Assembly: GCA_963696385.1 (NCBI GenBank)
Contig: CAVOKF010000006.1
Location: 32,001 to 96,000, forward strand
Length of the DNA: 64,000 nucleotides
From: an uncultured delta proteobacterium
GTDB taxonomy: Bacteria > Myxococcota_A > Polyangia > Polyangiales > Polyangiaceae
Direction of reading: 5' to 3'
Positions 7,041-60,024 of this stretch are shown piece by piece (position 1 is the stretch's first letter; the number at the start of each line of letters is the position of its first letter). The position numbers and the translations under genes were made by a program. The notes under the pieces are model-generated. The model searched no databases and was not told where the DNA came from. It was given only the letters and a program-made list of their open reading frames with translations.

Positions 7041-8460
7041 GTGCGACCAGGCAAGGCTGGTCTGAAAGGAATGAGATGCGATGAGCTCATAAAATTCAGA
7101 GAGTCGTCCAGCGGGTGCGAACCCCGCCCGGCGAAGGGCCGAGCCCGTCCAGCCGGAAGCGAGGCTTGCGCCGGCCGCCGCAAGGCGTTCGGCGATGCGT
7201 AGTCACGCAAGTGAGTGGGCCGTGGGGAATGCAGCCACGAAAACTACATCAGTCCGGATGCCGAGCGCTTTGGGCGGCGCGAAGGCGACGGCGGCTGCTG
7301 CGCAGCAGGGCGAGCAGGAGCCGCATCCGGCGGGGTCTACGACCACGGCACGCCACAAGAGGACGAACCAGACACCTGGGAGGCCCTCGCTTTTCCTCGG
7401 TGAAATCCCGGAGCCACGGAGAGCCGGTCACCCGTCTCCGACGCGCCGAGCGCACGCGGATGCGCGCACGGCCGGCCGAGCGCCTCCCCGTGAGGGGCTC
7501 CGCGCAGAACAAGCATTCGCGCCGAGGTAGGCCGCTGGCGAGGGGAGACCGGAGCCACGGCCGAAGGGAGCGGGGGAGTCGGAGGGCCGCATACGAGCGT
7601 GGACGTCGGGGAACGGATTGGCACCCGGACCCGGCCGAGCAAAGGCGGCCCGTGCTGAGTTGAACTTCAGGAGGGAACCATGCCCGACGCATCGACGTTG
7701 GAAGACATGTCACCGAAACTATTGAAGGTAGTGGAGCGAGCGAAAAGGGAGCCCGAAGGACGGTTCCACTCGCTGGCACATCTTATCGATGTGCCCGCCT
7801 TGATGCGAGCCGACAAGCGCATGCGCAACGATGCGGCGGTCGGCGTGGATGGGGTCACGAAGGAGCAGTACGGGCAGGCCCTGGAAGAAAATCTCCGAAG
7901 CCTGCACGAGCGGTTGGTGGCGAAGCAGTATCGCCATCAGCCAATCCGGCGTGTTCACATCCCAAAGGAAAGGGGCAAGACACGGCCGATTGGGATTTCT
8001 GCGTACGAGGACAAGTTGGTCCAGGACGCCCTACGCGAAGTGCTGGAGGCGATATACGAGCAGGACTTTTTGGAATGCTCGTACGGCTTCCGGCCCGGTC
8101 GCGGTGCCCATGACGCCATTCGAGCCCTCGACCGTATTGCGCATCAGGGTAAGGTGAGCTGGATTTTGGAGGCCGACGTCGTGTCCTTCTTCGACAGCTT
8201 GGATCGCACCCAGCTGAAGGAGATGCTCCAAATTCGGGTGGCCGATGGGTCGCTGATGCGGCTGATTGGCAAGTGCTTGCACGTTGGGGTGCTCGACGGC
8301 TCGGAATACGCCGAGCCGGACACGGGCGCAGCGCAAGGGTCCGTGCTCTCGCCGATACTCGGCAACGTCTATCTCCACTACGTATTGGACCTGTGGTTCG
8401 AGCGCGATGTCAAGCCGCGTCTGCGCGGGGAAGCTCACCTCGTGCGTTATGCGGACGACT
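7041..8460 (+). mobile_element. Group II intron, 3'-truncated (5' RNA domains plus partial RT; no DV/DVI)
   Basis: GTGCG 5' boundary at 7041, DI-like sequence (CCAGCCGGAAGCGAGGCTTGCG), RT ORF downstream. Confidence 0.8.
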
Positions 8461-8480
8461 GTGCGCCACGACGGCGCTGA
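7680..8480 (+). pseudogene. ltrA: Group II intron reverse transcriptase/maturase, truncated right after YADD
   Basis: GVDG, RRVHIPK, RPIGI..EDKLVQ, SYGFRPGR, ADVVSFFD, QGSVLSPILGNVYLH, RYADD followed by a stop within 7 codons. Confidence 0.9.
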
Positions 8481-18590: not shown

Positions 18591-19466
18591 GTGGAAGCGG
18601 TACTTCGGCATAGGGGACGCGCAGTCGACACGGACGATGTCGCGTTTGTGCGAGAGCTGATCGCGCAAAACCCGGGAGCGAGTCGTCGGGCGCTGTCGTT
18701 CAAGATTTGCCAGGCATGGGGGTGGGCTCAGCCCAATGGGACGTGGTGCGACGCGATTTGCCGTGGGCTGATGCTGCGACTGCACCGGGAAGGCCATGTG
18801 GAGCTGCCTGCGGCGCGATGGCGAAGCAAGCAGCCCCGTCGCCACGCGGTGGTGCAGCACATTGAGGTCCGCGTCGCCCCGCTGGTGGCGCGTCTTGCGG
18901 ATCTCGGGCCACTGGACATCCGCCAGGTTCGCCGCACGCCGGAGGAGACGCTGGTCAAGTCTCTCGTCGAGCAGCATCACTACCTGGGCTACGCGCATCC
19001 GGTCGGCGAGCACCTTAAGTACCTCGTGTCCGCCGGAGGGCAACCGATCGCGTGTTTCTGTTGGTCGTCGGCGGCGCGCCATCTGGGGCCACGCGATCGA
19101 TACATCGGTTGGTCCAAGGAGCAGCGAAAGGCCCGGATTCGCTTGGTCGCCTACCAGAGCCGATTTCTCATCCTGCCGTGGGTCGAGGTGCCGCACCTGG
19201 CGTCGCATCTGCTCGGCGCGATCTCGCGCAGGCTGTCGGACGATTGGCAGCAGGTCTACGGGCATCCGATTTACTTTACGGAGACATTTGTCGATCCGAC
19301 CCGTTTTCGCGGCACGTGTTACCGCGCCGCCAACTGGACGGTTCTCGGGATGACCGCCGGCCTCGGCAAGGACGCTCGCGGCTCGATTCCCAATCGTTCC
19401 CTCAAACAGCTGTTCGGATATCCGCTGGTCGGCGACTTCCGAAAACGCCTGCTCGGTGGGTACTGA
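18591..19466 (+). CDS. DUF4338 domain protein (IS66-associated, DruA-related)
   Basis: HHYLGY..GEHLKYLV, RDRYIGW, RFLILPWV..HLASHLL, ETFVDP.RFRGTCYRAANW. Confidence 0.85.
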   Translation: MEAVLRHRGRAVDTDDVAFVRELIAQNPGASRRALSFKICQAWGWAQPNGTWCDAICRGLMLRLHREGHVELPAARWRSKQPRRHAVVQHIEVRVAPLVARLADLGPLDIRQVRRTPEETLVKSLVEQHHYLGYAHPVGEHLKYLVSAGGQPIACFCWSSAARHLGPRDRYIGWSKEQRKARIRLVAYQSRFLILPWVEVPHLASHLLGAISRRLSDDWQQVYGHPIYFTETFVDPTRFRGTCYRAANWTVLGMTAGLGKDARGSIPNRSLKQLFGYPLVGDFRKRLLGGY

Positions 19467-24869: not shown

Positions 24870-25150
24870 AGTTTCGTATACTATACCGACGCCGCTAGGG
24901 GGACCGTGTCAAGCGTCCCCACGAATGGCTCGGCGGCCCCCACCATGATTGCATCCGCATCGGCTCCGCTTGGGCTCGTGGCCGACGGGAACTACGTCTA
25001 TTGGATCAATGGCTCGGGCACGAGCATCATGAAGGTGCCACTCGCTGGCGGTGCCGTGACGACACTCGCAACCGGCCAGAGCGCCACCGCAATCGCTCAG
25101 GATGGGTCGTCGCTGTATTGGACCAACGCCTCCGCGATCATGCGGATTCC
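24870..25150 (+). pseudogene. Fragment of a YWTD-like beta-propeller protein
   Basis: VYWINGS..IMKVPLAGG..LYWTN repeats, bounded by a MITE and an rve element. Confidence 0.5.
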
Positions 25151-26270
25151 GAGGACCGGAACCTGCTGGCCGATGCCCTGGTGAGGCCGAGCCGGGTTGA
25201 AGTAGCTCAGGGCATACTCGGCGAGGACATACCGCAGGTGCCGCTCCGACAGGATGATCACGTGGTCGAGGCACTCGCGGCGGACGCTACCCAAGAAGCG
25301 TTCGCACACCGCATTCATCAGGGGCGCCCGGACCGCGGTGTGCAGGACGCGCGTCCCGACGCCCGCGGCGACGCGGTCGAAGACGGCTCCGAACTTGTCG
25401 TCGCGATCGCGGATGATGAACTGCGGCGCGTGCCCGAAGGGCGTCGCGTTGCGAATCTGCTGCGCAGTCCACGCTTGCGTGGGAGCGCGCGTCACCGACA
25501 CCTGCACGACGCGCTTGGCGTTCACGTCCACGATGAAGAAGGCGTAGATGGGACGGAACCAGATGTCGTAGGTCTGCAGGAAGTCGCACGCCCAAACGGT
25601 GTGGTTTCGCAGGAAGGTCCGCCAGCGTTGTCCGGGGCGAGGCGCGACGGGCCCCGCGCCGCCTCGCATATACCGTTGAACTGTGCGCTTCGCGATGCGG
25701 ACGCCGAGCTTCAAGGGCTCGCCTCGAATCCGCTCGGCTCCCCAGGGCCGGTTGTCGGTCGCCATGCGGTGGATGAGGGCGACAACCTCCGGCGCGACGC
25801 GCCGTTCGCGTGGACCGTGCTGGCGGGATGCCCGCCGCCAGAACACTCGGAATCCTTCCCGGTGCCATCGCAGGACCGTCTCGGGCTTGACCAGGAGCAT
25901 GGCCTGGCGCCACCCGCGATAGAGGCTCGCGAGCAGCACGAGCAGGCCTCGCTCGTGGACGCGAAAGGCCGGGCGTTTGACGGCGCGCGAGGCGACGATG
26001 AGCTGCTGCCGAAGGAGCGCGTTCTCGGCGATGAGCTCGGCGCGGGAGCGGGTCAGGTCGGCGATGAATCCGCTCGCGACGCCCGAAGGACGGCACGCGT
26101 GGCGGAGCGCCCTCATCGCCCGGGCTGCCAGATCGGCGAGCGTGGCCGCAAGCCGGGAGACGGGGACGCGGAGCACGGCGCGATCCGAGCCGATCCGAGG
26201 GCGATCATCAAGGCTTGTTCGCCACCGACTCCTGAGCGATCGTGCGGCGGAGGAGGGAAGTAGCCAACAC
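25150..26270 (-). mobile_element. rve (integrase core domain) transposase element, IS481/IS3-like, 3'-truncated
   Basis: ENALLRQQL, VKPETVLRWHR, WGAERI, WACDF, IRDRDDKF, NAVCERFLGSVRRECLD; end TGTTGGCTACTT. Confidence 0.8.
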
Positions 26271-26271
26271 G

Positions 26272-26617
26272 GGGCGTTGGACACGCTCAAAGCAAGGTCC
26301 TTGAGCGTCGGCGCGCGTTCGCGATCGCCGACGGGAATACCGACAGCGATTTTTTCGGCTCCGTGAAACCGGCATGCCATCGGTGTATTCCGAGCACGGG
26401 CGCGTGAGCCAAGTTCCCCGCTTTTAAAGAGCAGATCGCGTGCCGAAGCGTTGTCGCTGCGGCTCCGTCCAAGTGGACGATTGAGCAACTGCGCCGATAC
26501 GCCTCGACGCTCATCGCACGCGTCACGGGCGCAGTCGCACAATCGCCTATTATTTATGTGACTGCGGCGGTTTCCCGGTCTCTTCGTTGGCCGATACGCT
26601 TTGGAGCGACTATTCGC
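26272..26617. repeat. Inverted copy of the 16184-16440 segment; includes the 60-bp core also at 11690
   Basis: Direct sequence identity. Confidence 0.85.
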
Positions 26618-26903
26618 TTTCGATCGAACGGATGCGGTTTCACACCCATTACTTTTATCACGATTGCGTCCATGGCAACCCATGTGTCGGTCGGTCGGGG
26701 GGCTCGCGCTACATCGTTCAAGCGTCATGAGGGGACGATCGCGCAAGCCGAGGAGTTTTCGAACTGCGTCAGGAAGGGGGAGTCAGGCGCCCGACGTGTG
26801 CCAACCGCGACATTTCAATCGTGGGATTTGCACGTAAGGTCAGTTCCCGTCTTGCGAGAGCCACAATGGGCGCGCCTGGTCCGCGGCTTGCTGGTCGTCG
26901 GTT

Positions 26904-27968: not shown

Positions 27969-28301
27969 CCCCGATCTGACATTCGTAGCGAAAAGGTTGT
28001 GAGACAGGAAATCGCCTGTTTGTTCGTGTTTGTCTCGCGTTGTAAGCACGTCGGTCGACGAAGAGCCCGCGGAGGCGGGCGCGGAAACATATCGCGTCTT
28101 ATATCGCGTCTTAGGAGCGTCCGTTGCCACTGAAAGTACCGTCCAATTGGAGCTGCCGCGCTCGGCGCTATTTGCATCAAGCGACACGGTGGCCGATCCG
28201 CTGGCGCTCGGGAAGTGGCTGAAGATCAAGGCCTAGGTTGATCCCGGGCCAGCCAGGGCTCGGGTGGGCCGCGCCGCGCGCAGGACTGGAGGTCCGCAGG
28301 G

Positions 28302-30179
28302 TCACCCGTTGCGCCGCCGCTCAAGTGCCGAAATGTCGCGCACGGCACCGCACGAGGCGCTCGTCGTCATTAGCGCGTACGCCTTGAGCGCGGTCGATAC
28401 GTGGCGATCGCGGTTGGGTCGCCACGCGTCCAGACCGCGGGCGTCCATGCGTCCACGTCGAGCCTCAAGGTCGGATGGGCCAAGGAGAAGTTCGATGCGT
28501 CGAGACGGGATGTCGATTCGAATGCGATCGCCATCTTCGATCAAGGCGATCGCCCCGCCTTCCGCGGCTTCGGGCGACACGTGTCCGATGCTGAGACCCG
28601 AGGTCCCGCCGCTGAAGCGGCCGTCCGTGATGAGGGCGCAGACTTGCCCGAGGCCTTTGCCCTTGAGAAATGAGGTGGGATAGAGCATTTCCTGCATGCC
28701 CGGTCCGCCGCGCGGGCCCTCGTAGGCGATGACGACGACGTCGCCGGGGGCGATTCGATCGGCCAGGATGGCTTCGCACGCAGCCTCTTGCGAATGGAAG
28801 ACCCGCGCGCGGCCGTCGAAGCAGAGGCAAGACGGGTCGACGCCCGCGGTCTTTACGATGCATCCATCTTCGGCGATGTTGCCCTGCAGGACGGCAAGGC
28901 CGCCGTCGCGCGCGTAGGCGTGTTCGGAGTCGCGGATGCAGCCCTTTGCGGGGTCGTCGTCGGTCGATTCGAAGTAGGTGTCTTGGGAGAACGCGTCGCG
29001 TGTACGGACCCCGGCGGGCGCCGCGAGCGCCCGTTGGCGCGCGCGAGTCGCGGCCGTGGGCCGCCGAATGTCGTTTGCGTCGATTGCCTCGCCGATCGTG
29101 GTGGCGTGGACGGTGAGCGCGCTGCGGTGGATGAGACTCATGCGATCGAGTTCACCGAGGATGGTGAAGATACCGCCCGCGCGATGCACGTCCTCCACAT
29201 GGTAGTTGGAGGACGGGGCGACCTTGCACAGGTTCGGGACCTTTCGCGAGAGTCGATCGATGTCGGCCATGCCGAAGGCAACGCCCGCCTCATGAGCCAT
29301 GGCGAGCACGTGCAGTACCGTGTTCGTGGATCCGCCCATGGCAATGTCCAGAGCCATCGCGTTCTCGAACGCCTCGAACGTCGCGATGCTGCGAGGAAGC
29401 ACGGAGCGGTCGCCGCCGACGTAGTATCGCTGGGTCATTTCGACGAGCTGGCGCGACGCGTTGTCGAACAGCTCGCGACGCATGATGTGGGTGGCCAGGA
29501 GCGTACCGTTTCCGGGCAGCGCGAGTCCGATGGCCTCGTTCAAGCAGTTCATGCTGTTGGCGGTGAACATGCCCGAGCAGGATCCGCAGGTCGGGCAAGC
29601 CGCGGCTTCGATACGGGCGAGCTCCTCGTTGGCCACGCGCGCGTCACTCGAGGCGATCATCGAGTCGATGAGGTCGAGCTTGCGCGCGATGGGCTGTCCG
29701 TCGCGGCCTCGCGTTCCGACCAGGCGGCCGGCTTCCATGGGCCCCCCGGAAACGAAGATGGTGGGAATGTTCAGGCGCAGGGCCGCCAGGAGCATCCCCG
29801 GCGTAATCTTGTCGCAGTTCGAGATGCAGAAGAGCGCGTCGGCGCAGTGCGCGTTGACCATCGTCTCGACCGAGTCGGCGATGAGCTCGCGGCTCGGCAG
29901 CGAGTAGAGCATCCCGCCGTGCCCCATGGCGATGCCGTCGTCCACGGCAATCGTGTTGAACTCGACGCCCCAGCCTCCCGCCGCATCGATGCTCTTTTTC
30001 ACCTGCTGGCCGACGTTGTGCAAATGGACGTGCCCCGGAACGAATTGCGTGAAGCTGTTGGCGATGGCGACGATCGGCTTTTCGAAGTCGCCGTCGGTCA
30101 TACCCGTGGCGCGCCAGAGGGCGCGCGCGCCGGCCATGTTGCGGCCCGAGGTGGCTGTACGACTGCGGTAAAGAGGCAT
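28302..30179 (-). CDS. ilvD: Dihydroxy-acid dehydratase
   Basis: [64 protein letters not shown]. Confidence 0.97.
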
Positions 30180-30247
30180 GGCGGCAGGCACCGTAGTGGA
30201 GGATTTGGTGACGTTCTAGGCGAGCGGTCCGAAGCTGAGTCGTATCG

Positions 30248-31174
30248 TCAAAAGGAGTCTGGATGGGCGCCCGCACGCTCGATCTCGGCGAGGCATGCGA
30301 GCGTCTCGAGCGCGTCGAGGGTGTCCTTCAGTGTCGGGATCGCTCCTAGCGCGCGGGAAAAGCCGCCGTCGTCGGTCTGGCAACCGGAAATGTAGCGGCG
30401 AATGCGGTCGCAATCGGTCGGCCGACGGCCGAATCGCTGAAACAGACGCGTGCCCGCACGCTGCACCTCGATGCTGGTCGACGTGGCCTCGGGCGTCACG
30501 TTGAAGCCCCACGGTTCGCCCTCGCACCGCGATGCGTAGACGCAAACCTCGCTAGCGATGCCGACGCCGAGCGCGTCGGCCAGTTCGACCGCGATGGCCG
30601 TGTCGACGAGGTTGGGCCCCGGAGAGCCGAATCCGCCGCCGGTGCACGGCAGTGCGCACAGCCATCTCGCGAGCGCATCGCGGATCGCGAGGTCAAGAGC
30701 GCCGCCCCACGTCTGCAGCACTTCGACCGACCGCCAGATGTCGAGCAATGTCGCGGCAGTGGGGGACGCGGTCGAGAGAGCTGGCGCGCGCGAATCTGGC
30801 TCGCTGGCCGGCGGGCCGAGGTCTCTGGCGATGCGGTCGAGAAAACGGTCGGGGCCCCGGCGCGGCGGGGCACCCACAAGGCGGAGGGCGGAGAGCGTAG
30901 CCCAGCCAATGACGAGGGTTGAGTAGTCGCCGGAGCCGTGTTGCTGCGCCTGAAGCCAGGTCGCGCATCGCTCGCGATCAGGAACGTCGGCGCCGAGCCA
31001 TCGAAGAGCGGCGATCGCAAAATAGGTGTCCGGAGCGTTCGGTTCTTCCACGCCCCATGCCCTGTAGAAACAAAACCCTCCGTCGGGCGTCTGTCGACCC
31101 AGCGTGTATCGACAGGCGCGGTCTGCCATTGCCGTGTCCCAGGGGCGAACGACCGCGACCCCCTTTGTGTTCAT
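30248..31174 (-). CDS. Prenyltransferase/squalene-cyclase repeat (alpha/alpha barrel) protein
   Basis: RQTPDGGF, AQQHGSGDY, GGGFG, CQTDDGGF repeats; 4-nt overlap with the upstream HEAT gene. Confidence 0.75.
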   Translation of the reverse strand: MNTKGVAVVRPWDTAMADRACRYTLGRQTPDGGFCFYRAWGVEEPNAPDTYFAIAALRWLGADVPDRERCATWLQAQQHGSGDYSTLVIGWATLSALRLVGAPPRRGPDRFLDRIARDLGPPASEPDSRAPALSTASPTAATLLDIWRSVEVLQTWGGALDLAIRDALARWLCALPCTGGGFGSPGPNLVDTAIAVELADALGVGIASEVCVYASRCEGEPWGFNVTPEATSTSIEVQRAGTRLFQRFGRRPTDCDRIRRYISGCQTDDGGFSRALGAIPTLKDTLDALETLACLAEIERAGAHPDSF

Positions 31175-32460
31175 GGGGCCTCCCTTCGGGCTCGTGCGAG
31201 ACGCCAGGCGAGCGCTCGAGCGCGCCAGGTTCCCGCTGCACGAAGTGCCGGGACGGCTCGAAGGCCGAGTGCGGTGATGGAGTCTTTCACCACCTGCCGC
31301 ACGCGGCGATCGCGGTCGGCAAACATTGCCGAGAGCTGTGCGGCGCCCGCCTCGCCGTACGCGGCCAGGGCTGTCGCGACCCGCTGTCGAACTTGCGGAT
31401 GCGGATCGTCCCGGAACGCTGTGATCGCGGCTACCGCCGTCGCGTCGTGAAGTCGCTCGAGAGTGGAGGCCGCAAGGAGCCGTGCGGGCGCGTCGTTGTC
31501 CTTGGCGATCGCAGCGAGAGCGTCGATGACAACGGCTCCGCCGATGCGTCCGAGCGCGTCAATCGATCGCCGCCGCCGACGGCGATCGTTCGGGTCGGCC
31601 TTGGGGTCGATGGCGAGGGCGTGCTGGAGGGCTGGGATCGCCGGGCCGCCGACCTTGGCGAGAGCCTCCTCCGCATTGTCGGCCTGCCACCACGCTCTTG
31701 ACCCGAGCGCGTTGACGAGGACGGCGATGGCTCGTTCATCCAGGCGCCCGCGGCCACAGAGCGCGAGGGCGGCGGCTTGCTGCACGTCCGAAGAGCGGTC
31801 GTCGAGCGCCCGGTGCAGCACGTGCTTGTCGTTTTCAAGCTCTGCGAGCAGTGTAACGGCGGCCGCCCGACCCCACGCGCGATCGGCCCGCTCGTTCTCG
31901 GTCCCTCCCGACACGGCAGCGCGATCGAGGTGGGGACATACGAGATCGCTGGCAAAGCGGCGAAGAGCGTCGGACGCCGTTCGGCCGGTCACGTCCGAGT
32001 GCAGCCGGTCGACCAGGACCGGGATCGCCCGAAGGTCACGCAGGCGACCCAGTGCGGTCGCGCACGCCGGGTACGCCTGGATTCGCAGCGCGGACATCAG
32101 GGGCTCAACGGCCCTTCGATCGCCGATTTCGCCGAGGTTCTCGGCGATGCGATTGACGACCACGGACTCTGCCTGCGCCAGGACGGAGTCGAGTGGCCGC
32201 TCGATCCCGTCTGCCAGCCCACGCAGCAGGGCGTCCACCGCAGACGGCGATCCGATGAGGCCGAGCGCGTCGGCGGCGAGGCTTCGTGGCTGGTCGGTGG
32301 ACTCGGAGGGGCCGCGCAGGAGCCGCTCGAGCGGTGGGATTGCACGCGCCCCGAATGCGACCACTTGGGCCAGCTGCTTGGGACCGTCGTGCAGTGTGCG
32401 AAGGGCCTCGACGGCTCGCGCGGGCGTGATGAGCTGGCCTGCTGATGACTCCTGAGACAA
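31171..32460 (-). CDS. HEAT/PBS-lyase repeat protein
   Basis: Repeated AADALGLIG, LGEIGDRRAVEPL, ALGRLRD.RAIPVL, DDPHPQVRQ; GGAGG RBS and TTG start. Confidence 0.85.
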   Translation of the reverse strand: MSQESSAGQLITPARAVEALRTLHDGPKQLAQVVAFGARAIPPLERLLRGPSESTDQPRSLAADALGLIGSPSAVDALLRGLADGIERPLDSVLAQAESVVVNRIAENLGEIGDRRAVEPLMSALRIQAYPACATALGRLRDLRAIPVLVDRLHSDVTGRTASDALRRFASDLVCPHLDRAAVSGGTENERADRAWGRAAAVTLLAELENDKHVLHRALDDRSSDVQQAAALALCGRGRLDERAIAVLVNALGSRAWWQADNAEEALAKVGGPAIPALQHALAIDPKADPNDRRRRRRSIDALGRIGGAVVIDALAAIAKDNDAPARLLAASTLERLHDATAVAAITAFRDDPHPQVRQRVATALAAYGEAGAAQLSAMFADRDRRVRQVVKDSITALGLRAVPALRAAGTWRARALAWRLARARREAP

Positions 32461-32489
32461 GGCTCACCTCCGTGGTGATGACCAGGTCC

Positions 32490-32542
32490 GTAGGAGTCAT
32501 CAGCTCGCCTTGCGGTGAGCGATTTCGGTGAACTCCATCACC
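32490..32542 (-). promoter_or_regulatory. Fluoride (crcB-motif) riboswitch 1
   Basis: GGTGATGGAGTTCACC-GAAATCGC..GCGA-GCTGATGACTCCTAC: P1 GGTGA/TCACC, pseudoknot GGAGT/ACTCC. Confidence 0.92.
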
Positions 32543-32723
32543 GTGTGGGCGCGGCTTGAACCCACAACCAAAGCATAGCGGATCGGCGGGCCGGTTGCAC
32601 TGCTTCGAGGCTGCGCCGCGACGCGACGAGGTCGCCCGCAAGGCCTGCTTCTGACCGCCAAGAGTCGGCGCTCGGTGACCTCTTGCCAGCCAAGTCGCTT
32701 CGCGTTAGGCCGAGAACGTCGAC

Positions 32724-32784
32724 GGTGGTGGAGTCCACCGAAACCGTCGCCTCGCACCGGGCGGGGTGAACCAATGACTCCTGC
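32724..32784 (+). promoter_or_regulatory. Fluoride riboswitch 2
   Basis: GGTGGTGGAGTCCACC-GAAACCG..CCAATGACTCCTGC. Confidence 0.85.
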
Positions 32785-32902
32785 GGCCTTGGTCTAGGTG
32801 CTGCAGAGAGCGGCGCCTTGTCGCTGGAAGCGAGGCGCCCGTGATCCGTACAAAGCCGCGCGCGAAAAGAGGGAACGACGGGTCAGGACCCGTTATCGCG
32901 GG

Positions 32903-33765
32903 GTGGAGGTGAGCTCGCCGTGGCTGCTGGCGGCTGTCTGGCTGGGGCTCGCGCTGCTGGCGACGCTCCTGGCCATTTGGCCGCGACGGTCGCACAGCTC
33001 ATCATTGGCGCCGCCGTGGGCCCTGAGGCGCTCGGTGCAAAACTCCGTGGATCGCGTTCCTTTCTGGGACCGGTGCGATCGTGCTCACATTCCTTGCGGG
33101 CGCCGAGCTCGACCCGGCGGTATTTCGCGCGAAGCTCAAGCCGGCGGCTGGCGCTCGGCCTCGCAGGCTTCTTTGCGCCGTTTTTCGGATGCGCGGCCTT
33201 CGCCCACTACGCGCTTCATTGGCCGACTTCGAGCGCGTGGCTCGTGGGCCGTCATGCTCGAGCTCGGCCTGAACGTGACCGAGTACGGCAAAATGCTGCT
33301 GGCGGCGTGCTTCGTGAACGACATCGGGACGGTGATCGCGCTGGAGCTCATTTTTGCGCCCTCGCTGGTCTCCCGTGGGTGACGCCGCGATTCTTCAAGC
33401 GTTACGGCGGACGGCCGTCGGAGCTCGAGGCCAAGTACCTGCTGCTCCTGCTTTTCGGCTTCGGCGCTCCGGCTTCCTGGGCAGACAGCGCCCCGGTGCT
33501 TCCCGCCTATGTCATCGGGATGATCCTGGCGGGCACCGTGGGCAAGGACCATGTGCTCATCCGGCGGCTCCGCACGCTGACGTTCGGCCTACTCACCCCT
33601 TTCTACTCCATCCGCGCCGGGTCGTTCGTCTCGATCCCCTCTGTGATCGCGGCGCCGCTCGTGTGCATCGCGCTCTTGGCGGTCAAGGTCGCGACCAAAT
33701 CGTGCGCGCTCGCACCGACGTCACACGCACTTGGCTTCCCGCACAGGGAGACGGCCTACACCATC
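32903..33765 (+). pseudogene. Cation:H+ antiporter (CPA2-like) with multiple deletions and frameshifts
   Basis: Pieces in different frames: LTFLAGAELDP, LAACFVNDIGTVIAL, SELEAKYLL, LPAYVIGM, FGLLTPFY.IRAG. Confidence 0.8.
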
Positions 33766-33769
33766 TCGA

Positions 33770-34017
33770 CACGATGAAGGAGCAATACGAGAAGGAGTTC
33801 GCCGCGCTTCGCGGGCGCGTCGCGGAGCCGAGTGGCCTGCGCACACGGGTCGAGGTCGGCCACCCGGCCGAGCACATCGTGGCCCTCGCGGAGAAGGAAA
33901 AGGCGGACCTCATCGTCATGGGCCGGCGGGGCATACGGCGTCGCCCGGTGGATGCTGGGCTCTGTGTCCGAGCGTGTGCTGCGCTACGCGCATTGCCCGG
34001 TCACCGTCATCAAGTGA
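33770..34017 (+). pseudogene. Universal stress protein, 5'-deleted and frameshifted
   Basis: VGHPAEHIV..ADLIVMG.RG / LGSVSERVLRYAHCPVTVIK. Confidence 0.8.
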
Positions 34018-34072
34018 CGCCCGGACCCGAGGTTGCAGCGGTCAGTGGTTTGGGGTACGTAGAGTCACAAGC

Positions 34073-34128
34073 GGTGGTGGAGTCCACCCAAACCGCCGCC
34101 TCCGGCTGAGGCGGCCAATGACTCCTGC
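34073..34128 (+). promoter_or_regulatory. Fluoride riboswitch 3
   Basis: GGTGGTGGAGTCCACC-CAAACCGCCGCCTC..GAGGCGG-CCAATGACTCCTGC, directly upstream of crcB. Confidence 0.92.
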
Positions 34129-34191
34129 GGATGCGCCGTGGCACCGTAGGAAGTACGCCATCGGCGCCCCGAATCGTTGGAGGCGAGTGCG

Positions 34192-34575
34192 ATGGCGAGA
34201 GTGCTTCTTATCGGATTGGCGGGCGCGCTCGGAACGCTGGCGCGCTACGGCATCGGCCTTTGGTCGGGCAAGGCGCTCGGCACGGCCCTGCCGTATGGAA
34301 CGTTCATTGTGAACGTTACCGGGTGTTTTCTCATCGCGCTGGTCTCGCAGATCGCCATCTCGACCACGCTCATCTCGCCGACGCTGCGGCTCACGCTCAC
34401 GACGGGGTTCATGGGGGGCCTGACGACGTACTCGAGCTTCAACTACGAAACCACCAACCTGTTGCGTGAGCGCGGGCTTGGCGAGGGGCTCACGAATCTC
34501 GTGTTGACCCTGGTTGCCTGCTTCGTCGCAGGGATGCTGGGGTTGATGACGGCCCGGCGGCTGGTCGCCGAGTGA
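34192..34575 (+). CDS. crcB: Fluoride efflux channel Fluc/CrcB
   Basis: GALGTLARY, PYGTFIVNVTGCF, TGFMGGLTTYSSF.YE. Confidence 0.95.
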   Translation: MARVLLIGLAGALGTLARYGIGLWSGKALGTALPYGTFIVNVTGCFLIALVSQIAISTTLISPTLRLTLTTGFMGGLTTYSSFNYETTNLLRERGLGEGLTNLVLTLVACFVAGMLGLMTARRLVAE

Positions 34576-34591
34576 GGGACTGGAGGGCACC

Positions 34592-34993
34592 ATGCGAGTG
34601 TTGGACGGAGAGCAACTGCTTGTGCGGATCTTCATTGGCGAGGATGCGAAGTGGCATCACACGCCTCTGGAACGGGCGCTGCTCGAGCGACTGCGCCGTG
34701 AGGGTTTCGCCGGAACGAGCGTGTTTCGGGGTATCGCGGGCTTCGGCGCCTCGAGCATCATTCACACGGCGCATCTCGTCGACCTGTCCTCCGACCTGCC
34801 CATCCTGATCGAAGTCGTGGACGACCAGGAGCACATCGACAAGCTGATCCCGATCCTCGACGAGATGGTGACGGGCGGCGCGCTCATCACGATGGAGCGG
34901 GTACGGGTCATCCGGTACGCGCCCGCCAAGCATGGATCGGACATCCCTCCTCCGCCGCCGAGCTCGGTGCCTGGCGCATTGCCCAAAGGCTAG
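34592..34993 (+). CDS. DUF190 (PII-like) protein
   Basis: RIFIGE, GTSVFRGIAGFG, LSSDLPILIEVVD. Confidence 0.9.
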   Translation: MRVLDGEQLLVRIFIGEDAKWHHTPLERALLERLRREGFAGTSVFRGIAGFGASSIIHTAHLVDLSSDLPILIEVVDDQEHIDKLIPILDEMVTGGALITMERVRVIRYAPAKHGSDIPPPPPSSVPGALPKG

Positions 34994-34996
34994 CGA

Positions 34997-35542
34997 ATGC
35001 ATCCTTGGCACGACGTCTCGCTGGGGGAAAGCGCCGGCCATGGCTTCACGGCGGTCGTGGAAACTCCGCGCGACTCGCGCGTGCAGTACGGCCTCGACCT
35101 GCGGAGAGGTCTCTTGCGCGTCAAGCGCGTGCTCTTCAGCGCCGTGCAGTACCCCGCCAACTACGGGTTCGCGCCCCGAACGCTGGCCGAACACGAGGAT
35201 CCCGTCGACGTCCTTGGGATGGGTCAGGAGCCGAGCCATCCGCTGAGCGTCGAGCGAGCGCGCGCCGTCGGTCTCTTGCGCATGGTTCAAAGCGGCGGTC
35301 GCGACGACAAGATCCTTACCGTTCACATCGACGATCCCGCGGTCGAATCGTACCGCGAATGTAAGCAGCTGCCGCCCTCCCAGCTCGCCGAGATCGAGAA
35401 GTTCTTCCGCGACTATCGGGCGCTGGAGCGGGTGGAGATCCGCACCCTCGGATTGGGCGATGCACGCGAGGCGATGCAGCACCTTGCCGAGGGTGCCTCG
35501 GCCTACGCGGCGCGCATGGAGCATGGGCGAGCGAGCGCCTGA
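34997..35542 (+). CDS. Family I inorganic pyrophosphatase homolog with substituted active-site residues
   Basis: HPWHD, YPANYGF.PRTL..DPVDVL, DDKI, FF.DY. Confidence 0.85.
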   Translation: MHPWHDVSLGESAGHGFTAVVETPRDSRVQYGLDLRRGLLRVKRVLFSAVQYPANYGFAPRTLAEHEDPVDVLGMGQEPSHPLSVERARAVGLLRMVQSGGRDDKILTVHIDDPAVESYRECKQLPPSQLAEIEKFFRDYRALERVEIRTLGLGDAREAMQHLAEGASAYAARMEHGRASA

Positions 35543-37226
35543 TCCGTTCGACGTGCTGGCCGAGGCCGCACGGGAGCTGGGCGACGACGCGACATTCGCC
35601 GACCTCGTGGCGCTCCGGCGTCGCCTGGACGAGGGCCGGTTCTTCGTGGCGTGCGTCGGTCAGTTCAAGCGGGGCAAGTCCACGCTGGTCAACGCGCTCG
35701 TGGAGGCGGCCGTCTTGCCCGTGGGCGTCGTCCCTGTGACGGCAGTCATCACGGTCGTTCGTCACGGCCCGGAGTTTCGTGCACGGGTGCGCACGGAGGA
35801 TGCTGCAGACTGGGTCAATGTTCGCGTGGGTTCCCTTGACGAGTACGTGACCGAGGCCAAAAACCCCCAGAACGAGAGGCGTGTTCGTGCCGTCGAGGTG
35901 GATGTGCCGGCCGCGCTGCTCGCGTCCGGGATGTGCCTGGTGGACACGCCCGGGCTCGGCTCCGTGTTCGCGGGCAACACGGCGGCCACGCGCGAATTCG
36001 TGCCGCACATCGACGCGGCTCTCGTCGTCCTCGGGGCCGACCCGCCCATCTCGGGACAGGAGCTCGACCTCGTCGCCGAAGTCGCACGGCAGGTCGAGCC
36101 CCTCGTGTTCGTCATCAACAAGGCCGACCGCCTGTCGGCGGCCGACATCGAGCAAGCTCAATCCTTCACCCGCGAGGTGGTCGCCAAGCGCCTTGGGCGT
36201 GCAGCGCCCGAAGTGCTCGTCGTGAGCGCCACCGAACGTCTCGCGGGCCACCGGTCGCGCGACTGGGACGCGCTCGAGGGCGTGCTCGGGGCGCTCGCGC
36301 GCGATGCAGGGGCCGATCTGGTGGAAGCCGCCAGGCGCCGCGGCCTTTTGCGGGCGACGACGCACCTTTCGGGTGGGATCGAGGAACACAGGGCGGCCCT
36401 GCTCCGGCCAATCGAAGAGTCGGAGCGACGTGTCGAAGCCCTATCGCGCGCGATCGCAGACGCCGAGCGCGCGCTAGGGGAACTGGAGCCGCTTTTTCGG
36501 GTCGAGGAAGAGGCATTGCGGCGCGGACTCGAAGCCCGGCGAGCGGCGTTTCTGCAGGGCGCGGCCGACAACGCCGTCCGAACGCTTCGCGCGCGCCTCG
36601 AGGCGACGGCAGAGCCAGCGGCCGCGCTGCACTCGAGAGTGTACGAGCTCGCGCAGGACCTCGCGCGAGAGCACGTCGAAGCGTGGGCGCATAGCGTGCG
36701 GCCCGATGCGGAGGTCGCCTACCGCAAGGTCACGGATCGCTTCGTAGCGCTGGGCAACGACTTCTTGCGCCGCCTGAAGTTGGCCGATCCCGACGCGTTC
36801 GCGGCTCTGCCCTCGGAGCTCGAGCCGGAAACGGGCCTCCGCGCTCGATCGGAATTCTTCTTCACCGAAATGCTCACGATCGCGGCGCCGCCCCCTGGCC
36901 TCGGGCTCCTTGACGCGCTGCGTTCCCGCGAACGGGCGCTCCGGGCCGCCCATAGGCGCGCTTCGCCGTATCTTCTGCGCCTGCTCGAGACGAACAGCGC
37001 GCGCGTCATCAACGATCTGGGCAGCCGCGTGCGCGAGAGCGGCCGAAGCCTTCGGAGCGACATCGCCTCGCGGCTTCGCGCGGTGGCGACCACCGCGAAG
37101 AAGAGTGCGGATTGGGCGCGAGCCTCGCAAGCACGTGGCGACGAGTCAGTCCGCGCCGAGCTCGCGCGACTCGACGCGCTTGCCCAGCATATCGCCACCG
37201 TCGAGCGACTCGGACGCGCAGTCTAG
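35523..37226 (+). CDS. Bacterial dynamin-like GTPase
   Basis: GQFKRGKSTLVNAL, LPVGVVPVT, LVDTPG, VINKAD, helical C-terminus. Confidence 0.9.
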   Translation: MGERAPDPFDVLAEAARELGDDATFADLVALRRRLDEGRFFVACVGQFKRGKSTLVNALVEAAVLPVGVVPVTAVITVVRHGPEFRARVRTEDAADWVNVRVGSLDEYVTEAKNPQNERRVRAVEVDVPAALLASGMCLVDTPGLGSVFAGNTAATREFVPHIDAALVVLGADPPISGQELDLVAEVARQVEPLVFVINKADRLSAADIEQAQSFTREVVAKRLGRAAPEVLVVSATERLAGHRSRDWDALEGVLGALARDAGADLVEAARRRGLLRATTHLSGGIEEHRAALLRPIEESERRVEALSRAIADAERALGELEPLFRVEEEALRRGLEARRAAFLQGAADNAVRTLRARLEATAEPAAALHSRVYELAQDLAREHVEAWAHSVRPDAEVAYRKVTDRFVALGNDFLRRLKLADPDAFAALPSELEPETGLRARSEFFFTEMLTIAAPPPGLGLLDALRSRERALRAAHRRASPYLLRLLETNSARVINDLGSRVRESGRSLRSDIASRLRAVATTAKKSADWARASQARGDESVRAELARLDALAQHIATVERLGRAV

Positions 37227-37253: not shown

Positions 37254-38498
37254 TCAGCATGGCGGCGTGGCGTCCGGAAGTGGCCCCGCTCGCCCCGAGG
37301 GTCCGCCGGACAGGATGACGACTGCACCAAGCAGCGACGTGGCCAGCACGAGCGACATCGCGGCGACCGGCTGGATCGCCCAAAGTGCGCCGACGAGGAC
37401 ACTGGAGACGAGATCGCCGATGCCGTTGACGGTGGCGAGGAGACCGAAACCGGTGCCGCGGATTGGCTCCGGCACAAGGCCGGCGGCGGTCGTGCTCTCT
37501 ACCGTTTCCCAGAACCCCATATAGAGGCCCGAGACGCCAAAGACGACGCCAAACTTGGAGAACGAATCGCCCGGCGCAAGCAAGGCAAGCGCCGGGACGG
37601 CCGCAATCAAATACCCCGCGGCGAGGACGCGGCGGGGGGGAAAGCGATCGGCCAGGGCCCCTGCGACGGAGCAGGCTGCCGTGTAGACGACGTTGTACCC
37701 GACGTAGTACGCCATCGCGAGAGTCGCCGCGTGGCCATGGCCTAGGCGAGGCGCCCACGCTTGCGTCGCGAACAGGATGAGCAAGGTCTTGGAGAAGTCC
37801 CCGAGACCGGCGATTCCAACGCCGAGGAGGAACCGACGGAAGACCGGTGGCAGCTCCTGCCAATCGCCGAGACGACGCGCGGAGGGGGCAGGCGCGTGGG
37901 GCTTTTCTTGGACCGCGAAGGTGATGAGAAATGCGGCGAGCAGGCCGGGGACAAGAGTGAGCGCGAATGTCATGCGCGTCCCGAGCGCGGTCGACACACC
38001 GAGCGCCAGAAGCGGGCCGACGACAGCCCCTGCGCTGTCCATCGAGCGTTCAAGGCCGAAGGCGCGCCCGCGCGTCTCGTTGGTCGTGGCTTCGGTGAGA
38101 AGGACGTTGCGGACCGGTGTCCGCATGCCTCGACCCAGCCAGCCGAAGACGCGACCGACCAGGACGTGCCAGGTGCTCGTCGCGAAGGCGAAACTGGCCA
38201 TGCCCGAAGCGGTCATGAAGTAGCCCACCACCGCGAGCGGCTTGCGGTGCTTGAGCCGGTCCGAGGTGACGCCGGACGCAAGCTTGGCAAAGCTCGAGAG
38301 ACCGTCGGCGAGGCCCTCGATGAGGCCCAGGGCGCCCGCGCCCGCGCCGAAACCGGCCAGCAGCGCGGGCATCACGGTCGTGGCCATCTCGTGGCCGACA
38401 TCGGACAGCAAGCTCGCGAGGCCGATGGCGAGAACGGTTCGGTTCAGCCAACCGGTGCGGGCGCGCGTGGGTGGGAGCCCGGCTTGCGTCGGAGCCAT
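37254..38498 (-). CDS. MFS transporter
   Basis: SLLSDVGHEM, SDRLKHRK, RGRAFGLERSMD, ~12 TM segments. Confidence 0.9.
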   Translation of the reverse strand: MAPTQAGLPPTRARTGWLNRTVLAIGLASLLSDVGHEMATTVMPALLAGFGAGAGALGLIEGLADGLSSFAKLASGVTSDRLKHRKPLAVVGYFMTASGMASFAFATSTWHVLVGRVFGWLGRGMRTPVRNVLLTEATTNETRGRAFGLERSMDSAGAVVGPLLALGVSTALGTRMTFALTLVPGLLAAFLITFAVQEKPHAPAPSARRLGDWQELPPVFRRFLLGVGIAGLGDFSKTLLILFATQAWAPRLGHGHAATLAMAYYVGYNVVYTAACSVAGALADRFPPRRVLAAGYLIAAVPALALLAPGDSFSKFGVVFGVSGLYMGFWETVESTTAAGLVPEPIRGTGFGLLATVNGIGDLVSSVLVGALWAIQPVAAMSLVLATSLLGAVVILSGGPSGRAGPLPDATPPC

Positions 38499-38546
38499 GT
38501 CACCGATGGAAGGAGTCCTGCAGCCCTGCGGAAAGAGATTCCTACG

Positions 38547-39955
<1,409 letters not shown>

Positions 39956-40160
39956 AAGGCCCTCGCTACTGCAAACGGGAACGCACCGCAAGAGCCGCGG
40001 AGACGAAGCGACCTCATGGTTCGCGCGCATTGACGCGGCTCCACTCGTGATTGGCGCGGCACGACGCGCGCGTGCCCCGCGATGCTCGGGGCGCTCAGGG
40101 CTGGAGTCGAGCAGGGCAAGGGCCTGCCTGAGGACTTCAAGAGCGTCGGGTCGGGCGCGG

Positions 40161-58979: not shown

Positions 58980-59303
58980 TTCGTCAGCGGCGGGCTCCGG
59001 AAGGTGGCCACGCCGGTCCCCGAGCTCGCCTCGAAGATGCCGGGCCCGTCGAGCAACAAGGACTGGCCGATCGGCGCTATCCGCAGATTTCTCTCGGTGC
59101 CCCTCCGTGTTCACAAGTTGGGTGCCACCGTCGGGAGCCAGCCCGGGCAGCCCGTTTTCACGGTTCGTGTACGCGCCTCAGCAAAGGCCTCGATCCGTAA
59201 GCGCTTGAGCGAGCTATTCGGCTACTCGCATTCGGTCCTGTTTCCAGACTACCCTGGATTCGCCACGTTCGGCGCGGGCCACGCACTGAGGAGCGTCAAG
59301 TGA
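58980..59303 (+). pseudogene. 3' part of the gene interrupted by the ISKra4 element (FRG-domain-like tail)
   Basis: K..IRKRL..FGYSHSVLFPDYPG; GTGA overlap with the next gene. Confidence 0.4.
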
Positions 59304-60020
59304 CAGAGCGTGGCGCAACGGGCGTGCCCGTCTACCAGGAGTACATGAACCCGATTCTGGACGTGCTGCGTCGAGAGGGACGACCTCTCACGATCGAGCA
59401 GCTCGATAGCCACGTCATTGCGGAAATGAAGTTGGCTCCCGACGTCGCGGCAATTCCTCATGACGCCGAGAAGCCCGATCGAAGCGAAGTAAGTTATCGA
59501 ATCGCGTGGTCCCGGACGTACCTGAAGAAGGCCGGTCTCCTCGACAATCCGACGCGCGGCCAATGGGGCGCTTCGGAGAAGGGCCGTAGCGCCGGAGCGA
59601 TCGACGCGTACGAGTTGGCCTCGGAGATCGCGCAGGCGTCGAAGGCGGCATCTGTCGCAAGGGCAGCCGCCGGTGAGTCGTCGGAGAGCGACGGCGAAGG
59701 GGAAGAGGACGAGGAGCTCCTCGCGGCGCGGGTAGGCGACGAGCTCGCGCGCCAGATCCGGTCCGCCCACGAGCAGCTCGCCGCGGACGGTCAGCTCCTC
59801 TCGGCCGACCAGGCGACACGCTGTTACGGACGCTTCCGCGATCTCTTTGGCCCCGACGTGCTCGGCGGCCTCGACGGCGAGGCGCTGCTCACGAAGATGC
59901 ATGGGCGCGGCACAAAGGACAGCCTGGTCTATTGGTTAGAGTTCAAAGACGACGACGAGTTCCCTGCACGTTTCGGGAGCATCGGCGGCGGCAGCGCGCT
60001 CAAGTTCGGGATCTATCACG
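59300..60020 (+). pseudogene. Mrr_N domain protein, probably the N-terminus of an McrB-like restriction GTPase, truncated by an rve element
   Basis: VP.Y..YM.PIL, YRIAWSRTYLKKAGLL...RGQW; SLVYWLEFK.DDEF..FGSI.GGSALKFG. Confidence 0.7.
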
Positions 60021-60024
60021 CGTG

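Follow-up and report, generated by a model that had tools for sequence, protein, structure and literature searches.

What does a fluoride riboswitch control when the genes behind it encode a HEAT-repeat protein, a protein of prenyltransferase-like alpha/alpha toroid fold (hereafter, the toroid) and the dihydroxy-acid dehydratase IlvD? The damage that fluoride causes in cells is best traced through fluoride riboswitch regulons, and a literature search found nothing tying any of these three proteins to fluoride, in line with an earlier note on the 64,000-nt stretch of DNA analyzed here (the window), which knew of no such role. That note had proposed that IlvD may be an unrecognised fluoride target, and that the HEAT and toroid proteins constitute a new fluoride-response module. 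From the results presented below we consider it probable, while far from certain, that the three genes form a fluoride-inducible operon on an acquired island with four riboswitches, governed by a translational switch, with the toroid as its core and the HEAT and ilvD genes as additions of this lineage.

The Riboswitch and Its Expression Platform

The features of the operon and of its surroundings are collected in Table 1. The operon lies where it had been placed before (28302..32542), although the end at 32542 omits the first 9 nt of the aptamer. The latter, described in the earlier note as canonical and some 30 nt from the HEAT gene, aligns over the full length of the Rfam model (positions 1–64; gathering score, 34), with both stems paired and with GAUGGAGUUC and CUGAUGACUCCUAC in agreement with the consensus; the actual distance to the TTG start at 32460 is 23 nt. 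A covariance model built in this analysis (R1) scores the aptamer at 58 bits. Four riboswitch matches are found in the whole genome (6.9 Mb), all of them clustered in a 7.5-kb segment of the window, so that the operon aptamer is not a chance match. Judged from its sequence, the riboswitch is confirmed as genuine and as leading a HEAT-toroid-ilvD operon.

The 3′ strand of the aptamer, GCUGAUGACUCCU, and AGGAGUCAUCAGC, which corresponds to codons 3–7 of the HEAT gene, are perfectly complementary along 13 nt. The alternative 13-bp hairpin would enclose both the Shine-Dalgarno sequence of the HEAT gene (GGAGGTGA, 32471..32464 on the minus strand) and its TTG start. The fold of this platform has an MFE of −60 kcal/mol (z −4.83), a value equalled by none of 200 shuffles. 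By its appearance, the riboswitch looks like one exerting translational control. When fluoride is missing, the 3′ strand of the aptamer would pair with the stretch inside the HEAT gene and hide the ribosome-binding site and the TTG; binding of fluoride and Mg would retain this strand in the aptamer and, as the fold suggests, leave the ribosome-binding site exposed. The HEAT gene would thus be switched directly, and the toroid gene by translational coupling at the 4-nt overlap (ATGA) of the two genes, which had been correctly noticed before.

Table 1. Features of the operon and of the neighboring fluoride island (positions in the window).
Feature	Position	Strand	Evidence
IS transposase (rve) adjoining the island	25097..26746	-	Pfam; sister species G003 has a copy, 99% identical along ~1 kb
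Gene 3, dihydroxy-acid dehydratase IlvD, long E. coli type, 625 aa	30179..28302	-	NF009103 1052.5 bits vs 710
Toroid-ilvD spacer, 68 nt	30247..30180	-	Unstructured; MFE −10.9 kcal/mol, z +1.58
Gene 2, prenyltransferase-beta-like alpha/alpha toroid, 308 aa	31174..30248	-	PF00432 38 bits; motif WGVEEPNAPDT
Gene 1, HEAT-repeat protein (PBS-lyase-type), 429 aa	32460..31171	-	PF13646 (HEAT_2) 8.8e-26; PF03130 (HEAT_PBS) 9.2e-16
Expression platform	32441..32504	-	Aptamer 3′ strand GCUGAUGACUCCU (32504..32492) complementary to AGGAGUCAUCAGC (32453..32441)
Fluoride riboswitch aptamer (crcB motif), operon head	32551..32484	-	RF01734 52.7 bits, E 9.5e-12
Divergent fourth fluoride riboswitch	32715..32790	+	Rfam 28.9 bits, below threshold; R1 59.5 bits
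Decayed Na+/H+ antiporter and Usp, three overlapping frames	32798..34109	+	Na_H_Exchanger 3e-5 (part of profile), Usp fragments
Fluoride riboswitch of crcB operon	34064..34134	+	RF01734 42.1 bits
crcB, DUF190, inorganic pyrophosphatase (ppa), dynamin-like GTPase	34177..37226	+	PF02537, PF02641, PF00719, PF00350
Second-copy enolase (39836..38547) and MFS transporter (38498..37254)	37254..39836	-	Pfam
Fluoride riboswitch of eno-MFS operon	39895..39964	-	RF01734 40.1 bits

The Toroid and Its Family

The match of the toroid to PF00432 is weak (38 bits against 26.5) and covers 68 of the 304 profile positions. An AF2 model (pLDDT 91.2) was compared with solved structures by means of Foldseek; the TM-scores of 0.65–0.70 to the beta subunits of RabGGTase and GGTase3 point to an alpha/alpha toroid fold. 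Beta subunits of protein prenyltransferases carry a conserved Asp/Cys/His zinc site, and class II terpene cyclases carry a catalytic DxDD motif and are of two-domain length. The family is marked by the motif WGVEEPNAPDT, and two alignments, A1 and A4, were inspected. Their invariant columns include neither His nor Cys, one Cys being 90% conserved in A1. As the zinc-site residues are thus not conserved, a true prenyltransferase was rejected, and the toroid is probably not a prenyltransferase. Its upstream neighbor in the window matches HEAT_2 and HEAT_PBS only, with no PPTA repeats. A class II terpene cyclase of the squalene-hopene cyclase type was also rejected: no DxDD occurs in the 308 aa, and TIGR01787 and TIGR03463 yield 15–17 bits, versus 323 and 851. 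Searching the ESM Atlas with the toroid returned generic prenyltransferase-like clusters only.

Members of the family were surveyed at 93 other loci, dereplicated to 52 groups. They occur in Actinomycetota and Pseudomonadota, besides the lineage of the window. Directly 3′ of the toroid, 27 of the 52 groups encode PEP synthase; 17 groups have an enolase gene directly 5′ of it, and 33 have at least one of the two. A fluoride-type gene lies nearby in 29/52 groups, and a fluoride riboswitch in 10/52 when model R1 is used (7/52 at the Rfam threshold); 10/52 groups, some of them with short flanks, show none of the linked genes. Examples of the gene strings found are riboswitch-crcB-HIT-DUF190-eno-toroid (locus L111) and riboswitch-dynamin-eno-toroid (L018), and in three genomes (G061, G064, and G065) the toroid is located inside the main riboswitch cluster. 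All five genomes checked possess another enolase besides the toroid-linked one, and the toroid-linked enolases form a separate clade (support 100/100). Linkage to the riboswitch is dispersed across the toroid tree, with seven changes for eight rows. At L018, L111, and L078, the ORFs that directly follow the toroid have nothing in common and look spurious. Judged by its gene neighborhoods, the toroid is a rare, unnamed family, recurrent beside spare enolases and fluoride-defence genes in acid-soil bacteria; on the same grounds, it is the real novelty and the conserved functional element of the operon.

Most of the eno-toroid-ppsA loci lack a riboswitch within 6 kb and, as 10 of the 52 groups lack any linked gene as well, the primary tie of the toroid may be with PEP metabolism and not with fluoride. 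The family would then be a general accessory of a second enolase or of PEP synthase, linked to fluoride indirectly through enolase. The frequency of both neighbors at loci that are mostly riboswitch-free agrees with this, but the clade to which the toroid of the window belongs (10 rows) has no ppsA neighbor, being adjoined by crcB, DUF190, dynamin-like and MutS-like genes and by riboswitches, and the toroid of the window itself appears to be fluoride-switched with neither enolase nor ppsA adjoining. We consider a role restricted to general PEP metabolism rather unlikely. Our preferred reading is that the toroid, whose family accompanies second-copy enolases, PEP synthase, crcB, DUF190, dynamin-like and MutS-like genes and riboswitches in several phyla, most likely serves the enolase/PEP step poisoned by fluoride. 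A complex prediction with the toroid-linked enolase (A3) and the toroid (A4) of locus L018 scored 0.00; run without controls, it is evidence neither way.

The HEAT Gene

Orthologues of the HEAT protein fall into about 10 specific clusters (P0034 to P0043 in descending order of identity, beginning at 75%), beyond which only generic HEAT proteins are found. When 400 genomes of the phylum were searched, with four candidates scored per genome, no orthologue was detected at E ≤ 1e-35, and neither the HEAT nor the toroid gene was found among 60 relatives. A phycobilin lyase or NblB identity was rejected (NblB, 55 versus a cut-off of 300; CpcE, 43 versus 330), the repeat type alone being common. The earlier note had suggested looking for homologous HEAT-toroid pairs with upstream crcB motifs. 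Among the 93 toroid loci surveyed outside the window no second pair was encountered, a HEAT gene being absent from each of them (tblastn, and phmmer over 5893 ORFs). Of the proposed fluoride-response module, the toroid part is supported, as its family recurs among fluoride genes, but the pair as such is not conserved. Within the genomes compared, the HEAT gene is an addition specific to the lineage of the window.

The Role of ilvD

NF009103, the NCBIfam equivalog with which gene 3 was assigned, is specific for the long type of IlvD (cut-off, 710); TIGR00110 is also exceeded (783 against a cut-off of 618). The models for edd and for sugar-acid dehydratases score under their cut-offs. The ATG at 30179 (MPLYRS...) is a likelier start than the GTG at 30191 of the ORF list. 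Counted from this ATG, ilvD follows the toroid gene after 68 nt on the same strand, in good agreement with the roughly 70 nt reported before. No terminator-like site was found by the scan on the minus strand of the spacer, and the sole such site on that strand (30461..30448) falls within the toroid gene. The promoter scan gave no sites in the entire 6.4 kb searched and is thus uninformative about a separate ilvD promoter. It is probable that ilvD is carried on the same mRNA as the HEAT and toroid genes; a look-up of RNA runs yielded none that contains the stretch. A translational switch directly governs gene 1 only, ilvD having its own start 68 nt further on. Production of IlvD could also be independent of fluoride, or be driven by its own promoter.

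IlvD is, like enolase, a Mg2+-dependent dehydratase. Its CDKITPG and CPTCGSCSG stretches, which we take to correspond to the Fe-S cluster cysteines and the Mg2+ site, align with those of a second, housekeeping ilvD present in the genome (G000:C7); this is of the short type, is 36% identical to the operon copy and is followed by an ORF that resembles, by eye, acetolactate synthase. The kinship with enolase, the common strand, the spacer free of terminator-like sites, the presence of ilvD as a second copy and the maintenance of the arrangement in a peat population (94–95% identical) would all suit the proposal that IlvD is an unrecognised fluoride target, with which the HEAT and toroid proteins work as a dedicated new response module. 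Nevertheless, we regard this proposal as improbable. Long-type ilvD genes of 73–81% identity are present in 18 of 30 genomes of the same genus, and no fluoride riboswitch was found when 20 long-ilvD loci in 14 relatives were scanned; ilvD was found by tblastn at none of the 93 toroid loci, where the HEAT gene is equally missing, and literature pairing "dihydroxyacid dehydratase" and "fluoride" showed no inhibition topic in its titles and abstract openings. As ilvD is an ordinary gene of the genus that stands without a riboswitch in these relatives, the notion of IlvD as a general fluoride target, put forward in the earlier note, is not supported. The association of the riboswitch with ilvD is, among the genomes compared, private to the lineage of the window.

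Alternatively, ilvD may be a bystander, mobile elements having put the riboswitch-HEAT-toroid cassette ahead of an ordinary, independently expressed gene. We hold this to be a real possibility, albeit not the one that we favor. Consistent with it, the long type is widespread in the genus, and 12 genomes show no ilvD match other than this type. Furthermore, the ilvD flanks vary between genomes of relatives: only the coding sequence matches in blastn (tblastx yielded mostly low-scoring noise), and homology is lost no more than about 10 nt away from the start codon. Short multi-copy repeats and an IS are located just past the 3′ end, and the switch would affect translation of gene 1 only. Yet a housekeeping ilvD is kept in an ilv locus, so that the operon copy is dispensable and has nonetheless remained intact, and the peat population has retained the toroid-ilvD junction. 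In addition, the operon ilvD and the long ilvD of the sister species G003 are not orthologous by vertical descent (78% DNA identity, versus 94% at a housekeeping locus); arrival of the operon copy together with the island, or its retention with it, would agree with this. According to our preferred reading, this second, E. coli-type ilvD came to follow the cassette in the lineage of the window only. In this lineage it may serve as a spare during fluoride exposure, in analogy to the enolase of the island.

The Fluoride Island and Its Origin

Model R1 recognizes the divergent riboswitch, a sequence outside its training set. The enolase of the island is additional to a housekeeping enolase located at G000:C3. 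Transposases, an integrase and a group II intron are found around the island. Sister species G003, the DNA of which is 94% identical along a 3948-nt housekeeping locus, yielded no riboswitch, no toroid and no HEAT gene. Because of this difference, of the lower identity of its long ilvD and of the surrounding mobile elements, horizontal acquisition of the four-riboswitch island is part of the explanation that, taken as a whole, we judge probable. Peat-metagenome contigs, 94–95% identical, span the ilvD-toroid, toroid-HEAT, and HEAT-riboswitch junctions; the gene arrangement is hence not an assembly artefact.

Discussion

If our reading holds true, the rare toroid family is a new, testable regulon member with a known inducer. 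It also points to PEP supply as the pressure point for cells that live in peat and acid soils, environments that facilitate the entry of HF. The case of ilvD is weaker, and poses the biochemical question of the fluoride sensitivity of Fe-S/Mg2+ dehydratases. The toroid finding is also relevant to attempts to make organisms more tolerant of fluoride, so that they can degrade or synthesize organofluorines (reviewed in PMC11139923).

A more speculative account, to which we give very little credence, is that the island comprises parts of a bypass around fluoride-blocked enolase (phosphoglycerate to glycerate to pyruvate to PEP). Accumulated phosphoglycerate would be dephosphorylated by histidine-phosphatase or HAD enzymes, which are common in fluoride operons, and the switched IlvD would dehydrate glycerate to pyruvate, a promiscuous activity documented for the Sulfolobus DHAD (PMC6982167). 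PEP synthase, the commonest neighbor of the toroid, would return pyruvate to PEP, and the toroid, accompanied here by the HEAT protein, would act on the PEP-supply node as a novel scaffold or protector.

The operon may be compared with three known systems. The best solved look-alikes of the toroid (TM 0.65–0.70) include beta subunits of the prenyltransferase heterodimers (RabGGTase, GGTase3, FTase). In these, the alpha subunit is a helical-repeat protein and the beta subunit an alpha/alpha barrel, and the coupling of the toroid to a helical-repeat protein could be analogous. The toroid differs in its sequence (13–17% identity) and in having no invariant His or Cys for the zinc site, the HEAT protein is not a PPTA protein (no PPTA Pfam match), and such a partner is missing at the 93 other toroid loci.

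With respect to the canonical fluoride riboswitch regulon, Baker 2012 is reportedly among the sources of the gene list. The regulon comprises crcB/Fluc, CLC-F, Na+/H+ antiporters, ppa, eno, HAD, formate hydrogen lyase, chorismate mutase, and mutS-like genes (PMC2864571, PMC11139923). As in the canonical case, the aptamer passes the Rfam threshold and lies in a 5′ leader, and the neighboring operons carry classical cargo. HEAT, prenyltransferase-like toroid and IlvD proteins are not among the genes named in the text of these two sources; fuller lists may include them. The platform appears to be a translational helix, whereas an overlapping terminator is described for many representatives in Weinberg 2010 (PMC2864571).

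In GI3 of Enterobacter cloacae FRM, an operon ppaC-uspA-eno-gpmA-crcB-orf5249 is under a fluoride riboswitch, and this island sets an example of fluoride-sensitive enzymes being encoded in extra copies (PMC5533749). The island of the window, known from sequence alone, differs in that its four riboswitches belong to separate operons, and HEAT, toroid and ilvD genes are missing from GI3 as outlined in that source. As a spare-copy candidate, ilvD has its short-type housekeeping counterpart; its riboswitch association is not recurrent in independent genomes, the only repeat being the peat population. Like GI3, the island is flanked by transposases, contains a Usp and includes a riboswitch-led exporter gene together with an extra enolase and a pyrophosphatase (PMC5533749).

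The riboswitch-led operon and its leader

The operon proposed in the earlier note is real: a match to RF01734 is followed on the minus strand by three genes, encoding a HEAT-repeat protein, a prenyltransferase-beta-like alpha/alpha-fold protein (hereafter the toroid) and a long-type, that is E. coli-type, dihydroxy-acid dehydratase (IlvD). As the note had also stated, the HEAT and toroid genes overlap (ATGA) and ilvD follows on the same strand within about 70 nt, the spacer being of 68 nt if translation starts at ATG 30179. Three fluoride riboswitches in the window exceeded the threshold in an Rfam scan, and a whole-genome Rfam search found none in the rest of the 6.9-Mb genome. A fourth, sub-threshold for Rfam, reached 59.5 bits with R1, our own covariance model made from high-GC relatives, whose training set excluded it; Rfam under-calls the fluoride riboswitch variants of this lineage. 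Operon included, four riboswitch units lie within 7.5 kb.

Features of the operon and of its surroundings in the window
Feature	Position	Strand	Remarks
Fluoride riboswitch heading the operon	32551..32484	-	52.7 bits; gathering score 34; E 9.5e-12
HEAT-repeat gene, 429 aa	TTG 32460 to 31171	-	PF13646, 8.8e-26
Toroid gene, 308 aa	31174 to 30248	-	weak PF00432 match
ilvD, long-type	likely start ATG 30179	-	MPLYRS...; NF009103, 1052.5 bits vs 710
Fourth fluoride riboswitch, sub-threshold	32715-32790	+	Rfam 28.9 bits
Na+/H+ antiporter-Usp, fused or adjacent, decayed in appearance	32798-34109	+	three overlapping frames; divergent, behind the fourth riboswitch
Pyrophosphatase gene (ppa), riboswitch-controlled	34997-35542	+	only PF00719 match of the genome
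Group II intron with reverse-transcriptase ORF	7119-8480	+	RF02005, 107 bits; adjoins a DDE transposase
DruA-like gene	18591-19466		
Mrr-like gene	59300-60151		
IS copy	25153-26135		
Short repeats	~26460-26620; 28044-28101		

Over 13 nt, the aptamer 3' strand (32504..32492) shows perfect complementarity to HEAT codons 3-7 (32453..32441). In the minimum-energy fold (-60 kcal/mol) the 13-bp helix encloses both the Shine-Dalgarno sequence and the TTG start (z -4.83; 0 of 200 shuffles as good), and a terminator scan found no terminator-like hairpin 3' of the aptamer. Such a predicted layout would correspond to a translational ON switch. The spacer preceding ilvD lacks structure (z +1.58) and no terminator-like site was listed in it, the sole such minus-strand site listed (30461..30448) falling within the toroid gene. 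Because the spacer is unstructured and lacks a terminator-like site, ilvD probably shares its mRNA with the HEAT and toroid genes. A translational switch would reach ilvD only indirectly, via polarity or mRNA stability.

The link between the riboswitch and ilvD

A second study provides peat-metagenome contigs, 94-95% identical to the operon, that span the ilvD-toroid (30127-30459), toroid-HEAT (30838-31937) and HEAT-riboswitch (31915-32640) junctions; soil runs contain identical short pieces of this stretch. Because the peat contigs bridge all three junctions, an assembly artefact is ruled out as the source of the arrangement.

Long-type ilvD, at 73-81% protein identity, is present in 18 of 30 same-genus genomes, being the sole ilvD match in 12 of them; when the unpublished G027 and G010 are left out the count is 16/28 and the conclusions are unchanged. 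The genome under study carries a second, short-type ilvD, 36% identical to the copy in the window and followed by an ORF that by eye reads like acetolactate synthase. No riboswitch was found at 20 long-type ilvD loci from 14 of the same-genus genomes carrying that type or at the housekeeping locus of the genome under study, the best score being 13.8-bit noise, and the ilvD flanks of relatives show no synteny with the window, homology stopping within about 10 nt of the start codon. The lack of riboswitches at these loci and the non-syntenic flanks argue that the riboswitch-ilvD link is private to this lineage. The suggestion of the earlier note that IlvD may be a fluoride target could be taken as a lineage-specific possibility.

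The toroid family and its gene neighbourhoods

Searches returned 31 other toroid clusters among 5.8 billion (best identity 46-47%) and 180 representatives at E<=1e-30 among 1.84 billion. The family alignment contains the near-invariant motif WGVEEPNAPDT. AlphaFold models the toroid confidently (pLDDT 91.2); among solved folds the model comes closest to short squalene-hopene-cyclase-like proteins and to the RabGGTase, GGTase3 and FTase beta subunits (TM 0.65-0.70, 13-17% identity). No His or Cys that might build a zinc site is invariant in the family alignments, the toroid itself contains no DxDD motif, and the protein was not assigned as a prenyltransferase or cyclase. In one metagenome contig (L067, 3-2624, +) the toroid and a C-terminal M20 peptidase domain occupy a single 873-aa frame with an open 5' end, which would reflect gene fusion or else read-through across two genes.

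Toroid loci from genomes (32) and metagenomes (61) were dereplicated to 52 groups at 95% identity. Enolase lies immediately upstream on the same strand in 17 groups and PEP synthase immediately downstream in 27, one or the other being present in 33. Fluoride-type genes (homologues of eno, crcB, DUF190, dynamin-like, MutS-like or CLC) occur in 29 groups and a riboswitch in 10 by R1 or 7 at the Rfam threshold, the R1-only loci L083 and L122 having no Rfam match at E<=0.01; ten groups show none of these features. Gene order is riboswitch (47.1 bits)-crcB-HIT-DUF190-eno-toroid in locus L111 and riboswitch-dynamin-like-eno-toroid, with 4-nt gaps, in L018. Among toroid-bearing genomes, 3/3 riboswitch matches in G061 and 6/8 in G065 are no more than 8 kb from the toroid, and 4/8 in G064 are on its 16-kb contig; the two in G062 are distant and sub-threshold, and none was found in G063.

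In all five genomes checked the enolase linked to the toroid is an additional copy, and the toroid-linked enolases of Actinomycetota form their own clade, separate from housekeeping enolases (100/100). On the toroid tree riboswitch linkage occupies 8 rows and needs 7 changes. The toroid of the window belongs to a 10-row clade with crcB, DUF190, dynamin-like, MutS-like, enolase and riboswitch neighbours, in which no ppsA neighbour was found. Recorded hosts are mostly of acidophile or bog/peat lineages (Acidimicrobiales, Acidithiobacillus, Acidihalobacter, Thiomonas, Mycobacterium). The family is likely an accessory of the fluoride-poisoned enolase/PEP step. In a gammaproteobacterial MAG (L007, 2674-6882) the toroid gene stands behind formate-hydrogen-lyase/Mrp-like subunits and DUF190, both classical fluoride cargo, with no riboswitch within the 6 kb fetched.

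The HEAT protein has about 10 specific orthologue clusters (E 4e-176 to 9e-42, 75-36% identity), beyond which only generic HEAT proteins appear. No fetched locus, whether of the toroid or of riboswitches in relatives, contains a HEAT-like ORF (phmmer over 5893 ORFs; tblastn). The best toroid relative in the protein database is 47% identical and the best HEAT orthologue 75%, so that the latter is without a comparably close toroid there. HEAT and toroid thus do not form a conserved module, and the idea that the pair constitutes a new fluoride-response module was not borne out.

Origin and surroundings of the island

Genome G003 is 94% identical in DNA to the genome under study over a 3948-nt housekeeping locus, vs 76-80% for other genus members, and is a sister species of it. 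No fluoride riboswitch, toroid or HEAT gene was found in it; its long-type ilvD has only 78% DNA identity to that of the window and adjoins a block 94% identical to contig C5 of the genome under study, which lacks ilvD there. These absences, the ilvD divergence and its different place argue that the island (the riboswitch-bearing fluoride-tolerance gene cluster around the operon), ilvD included, was not inherited in place. Toroid and HEAT genes were not found in 60 relatives. Of the 24 same-genus genomes searched, 8 contain fluoride riboswitches, which head CLC-type channels, crcB-DUF190(-ppa-dynamin), enolase, PP2C, dynamin-like, AAA/KaiC-set and HPr-like genes, and never HEAT, toroid or ilvD.

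The other riboswitch units nearby are crcB-DUF190-ppa-dynamin-like and eno-MFS; the antiporter-Usp looks like a decaying gene. A second enolase elsewhere in the genome scores better than that of the island, and the island ppa may encode the sole family-I PPase of the cell rather than a spare. Across the wider window there are four DDE/rve transposases, a phage-type integrase, the group II intron and other mobile or defence genes; DruA-like and Mrr-like genes were also seen. The IS copy has a counterpart of 99% identity in the sister species, and two short repeats, multi-copy there (83-100% identical), flank the region just beyond the ilvD 3' end.

Comparison with described fluoride riboswitch cargo

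Among same-genus loci, a 53-bit riboswitch similar to that of the operon (L057, 3620-4103, -, on G022:C503) leads a 132-aa protein resembling HPr, the PEP-dependent phosphocarrier (PF00381, 74 bits). HPr was not found among the cargo listed in the 2024 review PMC11139923 and in Weinberg 2010 (PMC2864571). Riboswitch cargo at loci L058 and L059 of relatives (G022:C279, G019:C24) includes a PP2C phosphatase; a dynamin-like protein of 703 aa that has DUF1415 as a neighbour; and an AAA ATPase with histidine kinase, KaiC-like and response-regulator genes behind it.

In the library searched, no paper was found in which the fluoride riboswitch appears together with ilvD, dihydroxy-acid dehydratase or HEAT repeat, a listing in Baker 2012 being possible; the earlier note likewise knew of no role of the operon proteins in fluoride resistance. 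For prenyltransferase the only match, by title, was a review on cell-free gene expression, and a paper mentioning both dihydroxyacid dehydratase and fluoride turned out to concern an unrelated matter. Cargo named in PMC11139923 and PMC2864571 includes exporters, antiporters, ppa, HAD and eno, as well as formate hydrogen lyase, chorismate mutase and mutS-like genes. What is durably new in the operon is the toroid family, a likely enolase/PEP-step accessory.
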